DNA from: Hyphomicrobiaceae bacterium
GTDB taxonomy: Bacteria > Pseudomonadota > Alphaproteobacteria > Rhizobiales > Hyphomicrobiaceae
Length of the DNA stretch: 62,010 bases
Direction of reading: 5' to 3'
Assembly: GCA_031401535.1 (NCBI GenBank)
Contig: JANNRP010000387.1
Coordinates: forward strand, 1 to 62,010
Shown here: positions 22,791-61,227 of the stretch, in pieces
Layout of the letters: every line of letters starts with the position of its first letter
Numbering within the stretch: the stretch's first letter is position 1
Program-made: the position numbers and the translations under genes
Notes under the pieces: generated by a model
The model's database searches: none
What the model saw: only the letters and a program-made list of their open reading frames with translations
Told to the model about the DNA's origin: nothing

Positions 22791-24473
22791 ATGAATCGGG
22801 TCGCCTGTGCCATCTATACACGCAAGTCGTCGGAGGAGGGGCTCGAGCAAGCATTCAATTCGCTCGATGCTCAGCGGGAAGCGTGTGAGGCCTACATCAC
22901 GAGCCAGAAGCACGCGGGCTGGGTGCCCGTGCGCGATCTCTACGACGACGGCGGCCTCTCCGGCGGCACGCTCGAGCGTCCCGCCCTCAAGCGGCTGCTC
23001 GCTGACATCGAGGCCGGCAAGGTGCGCATTGTCGTCGTCTACAAAGTCGACCGCCTGACACGCTCGCTCGCCGACTTTGCTAAGATCGTCGAGGTATTCG
23101 ATGCCCACGGTGCCTCGTTCGTCTCGGTGACGCAGCAGTTCAACACGACAACGTCCATGGGCCGGTTGACCCTCAAAATGCTGCTCTCGTTCGCCCAATT
23201 CGAGCGGGAGGTCACCGGCGAACGCATCCGCGACAAGATTGCCGCATCGAAGGCCAAAGGACTTTGGATGGGTGGCGTCGTTCCTCTCGGCTACGATGTC
23301 AGGGACCGAAAGCTCGTCGTCAACGAGGTCGAAGCCGGGACCGTACGCACAATATTTCGGCGCTACGCCGAGCTGGGATCGGTCCGGCTGCTTGCGCACG
23401 AGATCGTCCGGTTGGGAATTGCCGGCAAACGTCGCGCCGCGGCCGCCGGTGCCGCTATCTCCCGCGGCGCTCTCTACCAACTACTGCAGAACCGAATCTA
23501 CCGCGGCCAGATCGCCTTTAAGGGCAAGATCTATCCGGGCCAGCACGATGCCATCATCGACGCCGAACTTTGGCAGATCGTGCAGCAGAAGCTTGCTGCC
23601 AACCGGCAGGCCCGCACCCTATCCGTTGGCGCCGAGGCTCCGAGCCTACTCTGCGGGCTCATTTTCGATGCCGACGGAAACCGAATGACCCCGACGCATG
23701 CCAACAAGCAGGGACGGCGGTACCGCTATTACATCTCGGCCAGCCTAATCAATTGCGACGAAAGCGGACCGAATGCGATGCGCGTTCCTGCGAGCGACGT
23801 AGAGGCCGTCGTGCTCGATCAGCTGCGCTCATTCCTCTCCGAGTCGAAAGCCGTCGCCGACGCACTGCTCCCCTTCGGGCCGACCGCCGGACAACTCGAT
23901 CGAGCATTGAGCCGCGCAGCGGAGTTCGCGGTACGATGGCAGTCGATCCCACCTGATGAAATGCGTGCGCTGGCCCATAGGATGGTCGCTCGCGTGGTTC
24001 TGAAGCCAGATCGCATCACCATCGAGATTGGCACGCTCGGTCTCGGCGACACGCTCGGCGTCAGTATTGCTCCGGCAGATACGCCGCAGCAAACCGTTGT
24101 GCTGTCAGTCGCGGCCGCACTGCGCCGGCCCGGTAAGGGGAGGCGGCTCGTTATCAGCGAGGGCAACCGCATGGAGATCAATCCGCATTTGGTCCAACTG
24201 CTGCAAGAAGCCTTCGCCACTAAGGATCTCCTGCTCGCCGATACCGATGAGAGCATGAACGCCATCACGGACCGCCTCGGCAAGAGCAAGGGGCACATGA
24301 CCGTGCTGCTGCGACTTTCCTATTTGGCGCCGTCGATCGTCAATGACATTCTCGCCGGACGTGCCCCCACCGACCTTGGCCCGCATCGTCTGAGGCGGCT
24401 GTCGAAGGACCTGCCGCTCGACTGGGCCGGCCAACGCCGATTGTTGCGCCTCGATGGCGCCGACGGCGCTTGA
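22791..24473 (+). CDS. Large serine recombinase (resolvase/invertase N-domain plus recombinase domain)
   Basis: CAIYTRKSSEEGLEQAFNSLDAQREACEAYI holds the catalytic Ser. VVYKVDRLTRS and FAQFERE motifs are present, with a long C-terminal extension. Confidence 0.9.
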   Translation: MNRVACAIYTRKSSEEGLEQAFNSLDAQREACEAYITSQKHAGWVPVRDLYDDGGLSGGTLERPALKRLLADIEAGKVRIVVVYKVDRLTRSLADFAKIVEVFDAHGASFVSVTQQFNTTTSMGRLTLKMLLSFAQFEREVTGERIRDKIAASKAKGLWMGGVVPLGYDVRDRKLVVNEVEAGTVRTIFRRYAELGSVRLLAHEIVRLGIAGKRRAAAAGAAISRGALYQLLQNRIYRGQIAFKGKIYPGQHDAIIDAELWQIVQQKLAANRQARTLSVGAEAPSLLCGLIFDADGNRMTPTHANKQGRRYRYYISASLINCDESGPNAMRVPASDVEAVVLDQLRSFLSESKAVADALLPFGPTAGQLDRALSRAAEFAVRWQSIPPDEMRALAHRMVARVVLKPDRITIEIGTLGLGDTLGVSIAPADTPQQTVVLSVAAALRRPGKGRRLVISEGNRMEINPHLVQLLQEAFATKDLLLADTDESMNAITDRLGKSKGHMTVLLRLSYLAPSIVNDILAGRAPTDLGPHRLRRLSKDLPLDWAGQRRLLRLDGADGA

Positions 24474-24670: not shown

Positions 24671-24755
24671 TGGTGGACAGGGCTGGATTCGAACCAGCGT
24701 AGGCGAAGCCAGCGGATTTACAGTCCGCCCCCTTTAGCCACTCGGGCACCTGTCC
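24671..24755 (-). tRNA. tRNA-Tyr (GUA)
   Basis: The reverse complement is GGACAGGTGCCCGAGTGGCTAAAGGGGGCGGACTGTAAATCCGC...GGTTCGAATCCAGCCCTGTCCACCA. It is 85 nt, with a long variable arm, anticodon loop CTGTAAA and encoded CCA. Confidence 0.95.
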
Positions 24756-45663: not shown

Positions 45664-46021
45664 TGGTGCGGACGGCGGGACTTGAACCCGCATGACCTTA
45701 CGGCCAACGGATTTTCGCACCACTTCGACTTTCGCCGCCGTGCACTTCGTAACGAAGGCACGTTCGTGGTCCGGACTATCCCTTCGCCGTGCGGCAAGGT
45801 TCCCCTCACCATTTAGGCGCCGCCCGTCTAGTCTCTACACCTTCCCGCGTGCAGCCTTGACGGCCAACGCAGGCTTGGCTCGGGATTAGCACGCCCTTGA
45901 TCACTCAAGGGCCATCAGCCTTCCCCGACTTTGAGCGGTTCTGCACCGGCGATTTCCCACCGGGCACTCAAATTCCGTCTCGATTTAAGTCCGTTGCGTC
46001 TACCGATTTCGCCACGTCCGC
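45664..46021 (-). tRNA. tRNA-Leu (UAA) gene interrupted by a group I intron
   Basis: The 5' exon (45987-46021, reverse complement) is GCGGACGTGGCGAAATCGGTAGACGCAACGGACTT. The 3' exon (45664-45715) is AAAATCCGTTGGCCGTAAGGTCATGCGGGTTCAAGTCCCGCCGTCCGCACCA. Joined, they form an 87-nt class II cloverleaf with loop CTTAAAA. Confidence 0.93.
45716..45986 (-). ncRNA. Group I (IC3-like) intron in the tRNA-Leu anticodon loop, no ORF
   Basis: Inserted between U34 and A35. It follows an exon U and ends in G. Core blocks AAUCCCGAGCCAAGCC and GGGAAGGUGUAGAGACUAGACGG match the cyanobacterial tRNA-Leu and Azoarcus introns as I recall them. Confidence 0.9.
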
Positions 46022-46150: not shown

Positions 46151-47035
46151 ATGGCGAACGTTGCTTGGATCGGCTTGGGCGTAATGGGCTACCCGATGGC
46201 GGGGCATCTGGCGAAAAAGGGCGGTCATACCCTCACCGTTTACAACCGCAATGCTTCCAAGGCCGACGCCTGGGTCACGGAATACGGCGGCGGCAAAACC
46301 GCAGCGACACCTGCCGCTGCTGCTGCCGGTGCGGACTTCGTATTCTCATGTGTCGGCAACGACCGGGATCTGCGCGCGATCACGCTGGGCAAGGACGGCG
46401 CATTCGCGGGCATGAAGAAGGGCGCGATCTTCATCGACAATACCACCGCCTCCGCCGACGTCGCCCGCGAATTGGACGCAGCCGCCACCGCTGGCGGTTT
46501 CGGCTTCCTCGATGCGCCCGTCTCCGGCGGCCAGGCCGGTGCGGTCAATGGCGTGCTGACGGTGATGGTCGGAGGCAAGAAGGACGTATTCGAACGCGCG
46601 CAGCCAGTTATTGCCAACTTCGCCCGTATGGTGACGCTGATCGGACCGGCGGGCGCCGGGCAGTTGACCAAGATGGTGAACCAGATCTGCATCGCGGGCC
46701 TCGTGCAGGGCTTGGCCGAAGGCATCCACTTTGCCCAGAAGGCCGGTCTCGACGTGCCGGCCGTGATGGAAACGATCGCGAAGGGTGCAGCCGGCTCCTG
46801 GCAAATGGAAAATCGTTGGAAGACAATGGAGGCAAACAAGTTCGACTTCGGCTTCGCCGTCGACTGGATGCGCAAGGACCTGTCGATATGTCTCGATGAA
46901 TCGCGCCGCAACGGCGCGAGCCTGCCGGTGGCAGCCCTCGTCGACCAGTTTTATTCCGAGGTGCAGAAAATGGGTGGCGCCCGTTGGGATACGTCAAGCC
47001 TGATTGCGCGTCTCAACAACGCCGACAAGAAGTGA
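46151..47035 (+). CDS. NAD(P)-dependent oxidoreductase, 3-hydroxyisobutyrate/6-phosphogluconate dehydrogenase-like
   Basis: VAWIGLGVMGYPMAGHL Rossmann motif, DAPVSGG, and a catalytic Lys region. Confidence 0.85.
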   Translation: MANVAWIGLGVMGYPMAGHLAKKGGHTLTVYNRNASKADAWVTEYGGGKTAATPAAAAAGADFVFSCVGNDRDLRAITLGKDGAFAGMKKGAIFIDNTTASADVARELDAAATAGGFGFLDAPVSGGQAGAVNGVLTVMVGGKKDVFERAQPVIANFARMVTLIGPAGAGQLTKMVNQICIAGLVQGLAEGIHFAQKAGLDVPAVMETIAKGAAGSWQMENRWKTMEANKFDFGFAVDWMRKDLSICLDESRRNGASLPVAALVDQFYSEVQKMGGARWDTSSLIARLNNADKK

Positions 47036-59928: not shown

Positions 59929-61227
59929 TTAAGCCTTACCTGTCAGCCGCACTTCGACCGAGCGGCGATGCGCCTCCAGGCCTTCGGCGCGCGCCAGCGT
60001 CATGGCGTGAGGACCGAGGCTCGCCAATGAGGCCGCGGTCAGCTTCAGGATCGACGTACGCTTCATGAAGTCGAGGGTACCGAGGCCGGACGAGAAACGG
60101 GCACTGCGCGCCGTCGGCAGCACATGGTTCGACCCCGATACATAGTCGCCGATCACCTCCGGCGTGTGACGTCCAAGGAAAATTGCACCGGCGTTGCGGA
60201 TGCGGTTGCTTAATCCTTCCGGATCGGCAGTCGCGATTTCAAGATGCTCGGCGGCAATCCGGTCGGCAAGCGCCGGGGCCTCGTCAAAAGAACGCAGCAC
60301 GATGACCGCGCCGAACACGTTCCAACTTTCACCGGCAATGTTGCCACGTGGCAGCACGCTGAGCTGGCGGGCCACGGCCGCCTCGACGGCAGTGGCGAAT
60401 GCAACATCATCCGTCATCAAAATGGCTTGCGCAGCCGTGTCATGCTCAGCCTGGGCCAGTAGATCAGCCGCAATCCATTCGGGATTGTTGTCGGCATCCG
60501 CGATCACCAGAACTTCCGACGGTCCAGCGATGGAATCGATACCGACCGTGCCGAACACCTGGCGCTTGGCTGCGGCCACGTAGGCATTGCCAGGACCGAC
60601 AATCTTTACAACGGGTGCGATCGTGGCCGTACCATACGACAATGCCGCGATCGCTTGCGCGCCGCCGATCCGGTAGATCTCCTCGACACCTGCAATGCGA
60701 GCGGCAGCCAGCACCAGCGGATTGAGTTCGCCATGGGGCGACGGCACCACCATGACGATACGCGGGACGCCTGCGACCTGGGCCGGCACCGCATTCATCA
60801 GCACGGAGCTTGGATAGGAAGCGAGGCCACCTGGAACATAGAGCCCGACCGATTCGACCGCAGTCCAGCGGCTACCGAGCTCGGCACCGAGCACATCGAT
60901 GTAATAGTCGTCTGACGGACGCTGACGCCGATGGTGGGCCTCGATACGGTCGCGGGCGAAGGTTAGCGAAGTGAGTGTTTCGGCCGAGCAACTGGCAAAC
61001 GCCGCATCGATCTCGGCGGAGCTGATGCGCAATGTTGCTGGGCTCAGCGTGAGATGATCGAATTTCGTCGTATAGTCGATCAGCGCGGCATCGCCCCGCG
61101 CCCGCACGTCAGCGATGATGGCCCGCACGGTGGCGTCCACGTCGGCCGACGCCTCGCGCTTGGCGCCGAGGAAGGTTCGAAACCGCTGCTCGAAATCCGC
61201 ATCAGCCGTCGCAAGCCGTTCCGCCAT
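59929..61227 (-). CDS. hisD: Histidinol dehydrogenase
   Basis: Full-length HisD pattern (GLYVPGG, IAGPSE, AQAEHD, GDY..G.NHVLPT). Confidence 0.95.
   Translation of the reverse strand: MAERLATADADFEQRFRTFLGAKREASADVDATVRAIIADVRARGDAALIDYTTKFDHLTLSPATLRISSAEIDAAFASCSAETLTSLTFARDRIEAHHRRQRPSDDYYIDVLGAELGSRWTAVESVGLYVPGGLASYPSSVLMNAVPAQVAGVPRIVMVVPSPHGELNPLVLAAARIAGVEEIYRIGGAQAIAALSYGTATIAPVVKIVGPGNAYVAAAKRQVFGTVGIDSIAGPSEVLVIADADNNPEWIAADLLAQAEHDTAAQAILMTDDVAFATAVEAAVARQLSVLPRGNIAGESWNVFGAVIVLRSFDEAPALADRIAAEHLEIATADPEGLSNRIRNAGAIFLGRHTPEVIGDYVSGSNHVLPTARSARFSSGLGTLDFMKRTSILKLTAASLASLGPHAMTLARAEGLEAHRRSVEVRLTGKA

Follow-up and report, generated by a model that had tools for sequence, protein, structure and literature searches.

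A stretch of 62,010 nucleotides from contig JANNRP010000387.1 of a Hyphomicrobiaceae bacterium (hereafter the window, numbered from its first letter) very probably holds one functional tRNA-Leu(UAA) gene, a 358-nt minus-strand precursor whose anticodon loop is split between U34 and A35 by an Azoarcus-like IC3 group I ribozyme without an open reading frame (ORF). The split-gene architecture is established by the limits of exons and intron, the tRNA fold that the exons adopt once joined, the homology with a family of similarly split genes and the comparative support for the core helices of the intron.

The split gene and its group I intron

When run in intron mode on the window, ARAGORN calls tRNA-Leu c[45664,46021] (taa) i(36,271), with the intron at 35/36. 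The call agrees with a first-pass annotation, made from the letters alone, which had seen a class II tRNA-Leu in two parts, 271 nt apart on the minus strand, and had proposed precisely this intron-aware check. Joining the exons gives 87 nt that fold as a class II cloverleaf with a long variable arm, A73 and the anticodon UAA, and every arm of the tRNA is backed by covariation in the 61-sequence alignment described below (helices 1-3, 15 and 16). As AAA follows the 5' junction and AAAA the 3' junction, the splice junctions could formally slide. We place them at U34/A35 because only there does a U precede the intron and a G end it, both of them invariant in the family; the insertion site put forward earlier is thus fixed by the invariant U-G pair and the terminal G. 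The longest stop-free stretch within the intron is 57 codons, so there is no room for a homing endonuclease, and mechanical ORFs of at least 50 aa that overlap the split gene number eight, not five as first counted. At this locus nothing is reported by default ARAGORN or by Rfam at its gathering threshold, the only call of either in the window being a tRNA-Tyr; the warning that gene callers would miss the tRNA was therefore justified. Default tRNA finders and curated Rfam are blind to a real tRNA gene, perhaps the cell's sole reader of UUA, and spurious ORFs cover the locus.

The group I identity of the insert is supported by homology and by comparative structure. In a local scan, the full Rfam Intron_gpI model (RF00028, model positions 1-253) aligns to 45996-45751 with 35.0 bits and E = 4.4e-7. 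By BLAST, the window gene aligns over its whole length, exon to exon, with 59 genomic loci among the matches listed, and homologous split genes are matched at E-values between 1e-36 and 5e-61. We aligned 61 split genes with MAFFT and wrote a structure of 78 pairs in 16 helices from the window sequence, comprising the tRNA arms, P1, P2, P3, P4, P5, P6/P6a, the P7 pseudoknot, P8 and both the outer helix and the hairpin of P9. Every one of these pairs is standard in the window. Across the 61 sequences standard pairs fill 97.7% of 4,745 cells, and sliding the 3' partners by 1-3 columns lowers that share to 34-43%; since the structure was taken from one aligned sequence this count is favoured over its slid versions, a bias from which the double-sided changes, found in 34 of the 78 pairs, are free. 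The covariation score is 0.305 compared with 0.119 in shuffles, and none of 500 shuffles reaches 0.305.

The exchanges can be followed pair by pair. One P3 pair is C-G in 20 and U-A in 41 of the 61 sequences, a P5 pair is C-G in 35 and G-C in 26, a P8 pair is A-U in 31 and G-C in 27, and a pair of the P7 pseudoknot is A-U in 55, G-C in six and unpaired in none. Double changes are present in P3, P5, P6a, P7 and P8, and so the P3-P8 core with its P3/P7 pseudoknot is comparatively backed; P4 and P6 do not vary across the 61 sequences and are hence uninformative for or against the structure. The P3-P9 fold anticipated around the core blocks of the first-pass annotation is accordingly recovered, and the blocks themselves, AAUCCCGAGCCAAGCC and GGGAAGGUGUAGAGACUAGACGG, both lie in the intron. 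The U-G pair at the 5' splice site is found in 61/61 sequences, and three intron-side P1 pairs (36-52, 37-51 and 38-50; helix 4) covary; the pairing of ACUU with GAGU, as P1 had been drawn, was correct, with U34 opposite G, and extends to 8 bp. In the L2 and L9 GAAA tetraloops, G, A3 and A4 never change and A2 is conserved to 90% or more; the G that ends the intron is likewise invariant in 61/61. Thermodynamic folding of the intron is better than that of shuffles (minimum free energy, MFE; z = -3.9), the MFE fold containing the P2, P5a, P8a and P9 hairpins. With P2 present, P5abc lacking and GNRA loops in L2 and L9, the layout is compact. The insert is a structurally intact group I intron of Azoarcus-like (IC3) layout, its likeness to the Azoarcus sequence itself being presumed, and the earlier description of an ORF-less group I intron holds.

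Folded in this way, the gene would be spliced as follows. The precursor would be transcribed from the minus strand and the intron would fold into P1-P9, with the internal guide AUUUGAGU pairing with ACUU|AAAU (exon|intron), holding the end of the 5' exon and setting U34 opposite a G. An exogenous guanosine, bound in P7, would attack after U34; P10, the exon-exon anticodon stem or both would align the 3' exon; the last G of the intron (45716) would then take the place of the cofactor in P7, and the freed 3'-OH of U34 would attack after that G, which would yield the ligated 87-nt class II tRNA-Leu (anticodon UAA). Guanosine attack, positioning of the 3' exon, entry into the G site and exon ligation follow established knowledge of group I introns. 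Judging by its title, a 1993 study by Zaug et al. reportedly holds that pairing of the exon anticodon stem matters for splicing in Anabaena. The segment ACGGAAUUU of L1 and the guide (45978-45970) copies the 5' strand of the anticodon stem, and in the window P10 pairs at 8/9 positions, against a family average of 3.5 pairs in the first seven (2.4 in shuffles). Two relatives of the window clade (L123 and L128, see below) have GGAUUUU opposite AAAAUCC. A long P10 as a family-wide feature was rejected on that mean, and since the family average is only 3.5/7 pairs, we consider the long P10 to be specific to the window clade.

Several observations weigh against a functional gene with a working intron. 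The curated gathering score of RF00028 is 50 and is not reached, so that the significant Intron_gpI match expected earlier stands by E-value and fails by cut-off (35 vs 50 bits). This shortfall is not evidence against membership, because 15 of 18 loci holding such tRNA introns also fail: of L001, L076, L023, L081, L103, L010, L101, L005, L036, L012, L078, L073, L123, L128, L013, L006, L030 and L059, only L059, L006 and L078 reach the score, the last with 50.9 bits. The cut-off is thus insensitive to the subgroup, which amounts to a systematic blind spot of annotation. The P3-P4-P6-P7 core is absent from the MFE fold, which is usual when group I introns are folded by energy alone. The P8 receptor region reads CCUAAA.../...GCACGG in the window (family consensus CCUAA..(C/U)AUGG) and the P5 receptor region GCUGAU.../...CGUGC, and by sequence reading both are variants of the 11-nt canonical receptor. 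A scan around the gene, which covers alphaproteobacterial promoters poorly, revealed neither a sigma-70-like promoter nor an intrinsic terminator. The window is a single 62-kb contig, so a second intact tRNA-Leu(UAA) could lie elsewhere in the genome. Finally, catalysis, self-splicing and splicing in vivo of this intron are what we infer from its sequence.

Some of these points could be taken to mean that the intron is a decaying relic, which splices poorly or not at all in a cell that relies on another tRNA-Leu(UAA) or a tRNA-Leu(CAA). The single contig would leave room for the second copy, the sub-threshold Rfam score and the non-canonical receptor motifs would fit this reading, and peripheral insertions (L1, P5a, P6b and P9a) lengthen the intron to 271 nt compared with ~205-250 nt for most relatives. 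Yet these insertions are clean hairpins with GNRA loops, unlike decay; the 78 tested pairs are all intact, and at every invariant column the window residue is that of the 60 other sequences. In addition, the exons are 100% (5') and ~92% (3') identical to those of uninterrupted orthologues, and the intron has been kept across lineages whose flanking DNA is down to ~77% identity. We therefore hold decay to be highly improbable and retain the reading of an intact, functional split gene, whose features are collected in table 1.

Table 1. Features of the split tRNA-Leu(UAA) gene, listed along the minus strand, and of other genes discussed in the text (positions in the window).
Feature	Position	Strand	Content	Support
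5' exon of tRNA-Leu(UAA), 35 nt, ending ...GGACUU	45987..46021	-	GCGGACGUGGCGAAAUCGGUAGACGCAACGGACUU (minus-strand reading of 46021-45987); acceptor 5' strand, D arm, anticodon-stem 5' strand, C32 U33 U34	ARAGORN intron mode, cloverleaf of joined exons
Group I (IC3-like) intron, 271 nt	45716..45986	-	starts AAAUCG, ends GUGCG	Rfam RF00028, covariation, stop-free stretch, MFE z-score
P1 hairpin	45966..45990	-	ACUU/AAAU (exon/intron) with internal guide, U34-G at 5' splice site; loop L1 = CGAGACGGA	
P10 strand	45970..45978	-	complementary at 8/9 positions to AAAAUCCGU (45715-45707), with which the 3' exon opens	
P2 hairpin	45943..45965	-	GAAA tetraloop L2 at 45956-45953	double changes in 7/9 pairs; also in MFE fold
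P3 5' strand	45933..45938	-	CCGCUC, partner 45825-45820	C-G <-> U-A exchange
P4-P5-P5a	45880..45928	-	P4 UCGGGG/UCCCGA, P5 GC/GC, P5a CCCUUGA-GUGA-UCAAGGG	P4 invariant 61/61; P5a in MFE fold
P6-P6a-P6b	45840..45878	-	CC AAG CCUGCG ... CGCGGG AAG G	P6 invariant; P6a double changes in 2/3 pairs
P7 5' strand, presumed guanosine-binding helix	45829..45835	-	G(A)GACUA, bulged A	partner 45778-45773
P3 3' strand	45820..45825	-	GGGCGG; P3/P7 arrangement = pseudoknot	covariation helix 6
P8 and P8a	45785..45819	-	P8 CGCC/GGCG, tetraloop-receptor-like internal loop (CCUAAA.../...GCACGG), P8a GGUGAGG-GGAA-CCUUGCC	P8 exchange; P8a in MFE fold
J8/7 and P7 3' strand	45773..45784	-	J8/7 AAGGGA, P7 UAGUCC	nearly invariant block GAAGGGAUAGUCC
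P9 domain	45719..45770	-	outer helix ACCAC/GUGGU, clade-specific hairpin P9a (45762-45739)	covariation helices 13-14, MFE fold
P9-domain hairpin	within 45719..45770	-	CGGC-GAAA-GUCG, tetraloop L9 at 45733-45730	
Terminal G of intron (omega-G; G306)	45716	-	abuts 3' splice site	invariant 61/61
3' exon, 52 nt, starting AAAAUCC	45664..45715	-	AAAAUCCGUUGGCCGUAAGGUCAUGCGGGUUCAAGUCCCGCCGUCCGCACCA (minus-strand reading of 45715-45664); A35 A36, anticodon-stem 3' strand, long variable arm, T arm, acceptor 3' strand, A73, encoded CCA	
Reductase adjoining the tRNA gene	46151-47035			best named matches Hyphomicrobiaceae / Hyphomicrobium
HisD	59929-61227	-		best named matches Hyphomicrobiaceae / Hyphomicrobium
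Large serine recombinase gene	22791-24473	+	CcrB/XisF-like	E = 1e-37
tRNA-Tyr(GUA)	24671-24755	-		default ARAGORN, Rfam at curated thresholds

Relatives with and without the intron at the same locus

An alphaproteobacterial host, as assumed from the outset, is supported by the proteins encoded in the window: HisD and the reductase next to the tRNA gene have their best named matches in Hyphomicrobiaceae/Hyphomicrobium at 78-84% identity, the closest HisD in the searched collections being 84% identical, and DNA matches of the window at ~73% are alphaproteobacterial replicons. None of the 120 genome loci listed from the species-genome scan described below showed synteny with the window. Relatives were chosen by their reductase orthologues, 82-92% identical (88-92% for the close group), and their contigs were scanned for tRNA genes. 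A split tRNA-Leu(UAA) is found in the same place and orientation in L123 (274-nt intron) and in L128-131 (289-nt intron), and an uninterrupted 88-nt tRNA-Leu(UAA), again in the same place and orientation, in L124/125 and L132-135; L126, L127 and L136-141 have no tRNA and a rearranged neighbourhood. Both intron-split and uninterrupted genes lie upstream of an orthologous reductase, 89-92% identical. The 5' half of the uninterrupted gene matches the 5' exon of the window at 100% in L132-135 and at 97% in L124/125. Since sister lineages carry the same gene in the same place without it, the intron is dispensable, and we regard it as an old resident of a Hyphomicrobiaceae-like clade. Such a presence/absence polymorphism at one syntenic locus offers a clean natural system for the study of intron gain or loss.

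The branching of the reductase protein (neighbour joining) provides a clue to the timing, with three intron-bearing lineages clustering apart from two intron-less ones. The split genes of the relatives are 79% identical to that of the window and the flanking DNA ~77%. The simplest reading, to which this one-protein tree gives weak support, would be a single gain or a single loss before the lineages split, followed by vertical descent. In an alternative scenario the intron would be a recent horizontal arrival, for example from a phage tRNA array, through reverse splicing or through recombination with the tRNA-Leu locus of another organism, and not an old resident lost by its sisters. The polymorphism of the locus among close relatives would fit such an arrival, as would the homologous introns on plasmids and in phage tRNA arrays (see below). 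A rough tree of the introns agrees in part with taxonomy and shows clear host mixing, Phenylobacterium and Bradyrhizobiaceae appearing in several places and a gammaproteobacterium beside Hoeflea. A 1999 paper by Paquin et al., by its title, reportedly concerns the sporadic distribution and horizontal transmission of the tRNA-Arg(CCU) intron in alpha-purple bacteria. However, the three intron-bearing lineages (window, L123 and L128-131) group on the neighbouring protein, and the introns of the clade differ from that of the window by ~21% and the flanking DNA by ~23%, which points to one event before the split and to vertical descent; moreover, the closest intron outside the clade, among the matches listed, is only 74% identical. 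A recent arrival thus appears unlikely, on evidence (one protein and a neighbour-joining tree) that is weak either way, and long residence in the clade is the reading we prefer.

The same relatives bear on the trivial explanation that chance resemblance, or an assembly chimera joining tRNA halves around unrelated DNA, has produced the split gene. Apart from the metagenome-style nature of the contig nothing speaks for it. The same architecture recurs at no fewer than 76 independent genome loci, syntenic relatives from different samples and assemblers share the split gene, and the E-values to homologous split genes (given above) are far from chance. Homology, covariation and the syntenic relatives refute an artefact, and we give it practically no credence.

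Elsewhere in the window, the large serine recombinase gene lies ~200 bp from tRNA-Tyr(GUA), the only other tRNA of the window; the pair may mark the edge of an integrated element.

Distribution in bacterial genomes, plasmids and phages

To place the window intron, one genome per bacterial or archaeal species was scanned with the Azoarcus-type core pattern AAGGTGTAGAGACTRGACGG, which gave at least 120 matches. Among the 120 listed, at least 76 are tRNA-Leu(UAA) genes split at 34/35, as determined with ARAGORN and end-to-end alignment; ARAGORN identities are partly unreliable here, 20 genes being called otherwise although their end-to-end alignment identifies them as Leu(UAA). Alphaproteobacterial hosts comprise Paracoccus, Rhodobacter, Phenylobacterium, Brevundimonas, Sphingomonas, Hoeflea, Bradyrhizobium, Methylocella, Devosiaceae and Acetobacteraceae; Betaproteobacteria are represented by Burkholderia and Paraburkholderia, Gammaproteobacteria by Halioglobus, Carnimonas and Microbulbifer, and other phyla by Acidobacteriota, Eremiobacterota/Vulcanimicrobiota, Bacteroidota, Chloroflexota and Binatia. 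No cyanobacterium is found among the at least 120 matches listed, the scan pattern being an Azoarcus-type core. The rarity outside cyanobacteria that the first-pass annotation had ascribed to tRNA-Leu(UAA) introns does not survive these counts, nor the presence of such genes in the tRNA arrays of phages and on over 1,200 plasmids. The window intron is one more member of this family, its only special traits being the long P10 and the extra peripheral hairpins, and no prior description was found in this lineage.

The same core signature also splits other tRNAs among the matches listed: Arg(CCU) at 8 loci (L013, L030, L049, L082 and L098 included), (CAU) at 7, Arg(UCU) at 3, Thr and others. A core match in the actinobacterium Tsukamurella (L088) comes with a putative Asn(gtt) call, and in L014 two core matches lie 0.5 kb apart on opposite strands, with a tRNA call for only one of them.

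In PLSDB, 1,271 resistance plasmids, from hosts such as Escherichia, Klebsiella, Salmonella and Acinetobacter, carry an unannotated 299-bp homologue that is 70% identical to the window gene. This homologue encodes a tRNA-Leu(UAA), is interrupted by a ~212-nt intron homologous to that of the window and is miscalled by ARAGORN as tRNA-Stop(tta); it adjoins aac(3)-IId and a tmrB-like ATPase; an example is pCTX-M3 (NC_004464.2) at 61823-62121 (L001 5001-5299), and another is L002 5001-5300. The plasmid-type homologue also occurs in 636 of 5,426 complete Escherichia coli genomes, nearly always at >=99% identity and with no annotation beneath, 82 of the places being chromosomal. Among the matches listed, the nearest genomic relatives of the plasmid copy are alphaproteobacterial (L005, L036 and L096 at ~89%, L024 at 84%), and in L024 and L036 the similarity extends upstream of the tRNA. 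These relatives suggest where the aac(3)-II segment may have been captured.

In IMG/VR, the same core has at least 120 matches (L142-L261). Of the 120 listed, at least 44 are called tRNA-Leu(UAA) with an intron of 196-237 nt, and at least 37 loci place a tRNA with a long intron, in most cases Leu(UAA), within an array of 4-32 tRNA genes; three of these were checked by eye. Phage examples of tRNA-Leu(UAA) interrupted at U34/A35 by a compact intron of this family are L193 1078-1358, L182 6414-6711 and L162 120-415, and also LR756511.1 409177-409322. According to a 2014 review, all phage introns known at that time were in protein-coding genes (PMC3984707). Copies in phages and on plasmids are directly relevant to the long-standing question whether the tRNA-Leu intron is inherited vertically or horizontally.

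Reviews as late as 2024 describe tRNA group I introns from cyanobacteria and from few or some alpha- and beta-proteobacteria (PMC4033280; PMC11408192). Our search of a limited library found no account of non-cyanobacterial tRNA-Leu(UAA) introns, of phage tRNA introns or of an intron adjoining tmrB, which is not proof of novelty. The wider pattern, a large, unannotated and partly mobile family with copies on plasmids and in phages, may thus be under-described. We put forward tentatively, and with slightly more doubt than conviction, that it represents a pan-bacterial and still mobile element that annotation pipelines miss almost entirely, spread over at least eight named bacterial groups, phage tRNA arrays and a resistance-gene segment carried by ~12% of complete E. 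coli genomes, with the window locus caught between gain and loss. If so, phages would be candidate vectors, and the narrative of an "ancient cyanobacterial intron" would need re-examination against a larger non-cyanobacterial diversity.

Comparison with known tRNA introns

The core blocks CCGAGCCAAGC and AAGGUGUAGAGACUAGACGG of the window are presumably shared with the Azoarcus tRNA-Ile intron. Like that intron, the one described here is small, ORF-less and placed in a tRNA anticodon loop, and it has the P1-P9 layout without a P5abc extension, the P3/P7/P8 pseudoknot and GAAA in both L2 and L9. In Azoarcus these two tetraloops contact receptors, and a tetraloop/receptor and pseudoknot architecture has been described, with the L9/J5 contact named (PMC4705646). 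The two differ in host tRNA, Ile(CAU) in Azoarcus and Leu(UAA) in the window, and in insertion site, which is after the anticodon in the former and at 34/35 in the latter. They also differ in length, ~205 versus 271 nt, owing to the additional hairpins P5a, P6b, P8a and P9a and the longer L1 of the window; its receptor motifs, unlike those of Azoarcus, are non-canonical.

With the tRNA-Leu(UAA) intron of Anabaena and other cyanobacteria, the window intron shares the gene, the U34/A35 site and membership of the small tRNA intron class; its host, in contrast, is an alphaproteobacterium, and P10 in its clade is unusually long (8/9 pairs). One might consequently see it as direct kin of the ancient cyanobacterial and plastid intron, descended from a common origin at this site, rather than as an independent arrival from the Azoarcus/Agrobacterium-type group. 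The identical insertion site and host gene argue for such kinship, and a family present in many phyla is compatible with great age. Against it we count the P7/J6-7 signature GGUGUAGAGACUAGACGG, which we take to be that of the Azoarcus tRNA-Ile intron, the Anabaena signature presumably being GGUGCAGAGACUCGACGG and thus different from that of the window in the P7 region. Moreover, GGUGUAGAGACUAGACGG is also found in introns of tRNA-Arg(CCU), tRNA(CAU) and tRNA-Arg(UCU). Direct kinship with the cyanobacterial intron is in our view doubtful, if less so than the recent arrival considered above, and we favour affinity with the Azoarcus/Agrobacterium-type group.

The tRNA-Arg(CCU) intron of Agrobacterium tumefaciens and Bartonella bacilliformis (BbgpI) resembles that of the window in its alphaproteobacterial host, its unannotated host tRNA and its sporadic distribution, and the tRNA-Arg(CCU) intron loci of the species-genome scan carry the same core signature. 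It differs in its host tRNA, its site after the anticodon CCU and its unrelated exons. In the literature consulted, the Bartonella intron is the nearest precedent from experiment for self-splicing. Comparable, too, is the tRNA-Leu(UAA) intron of a subsurface gammaproteobacterium that Vepritskiy, Vitol and Nierzwicki-Bauer are said to have described in the Journal of Bacteriology in 2002, from which the intron of the window differs in the class of its host.

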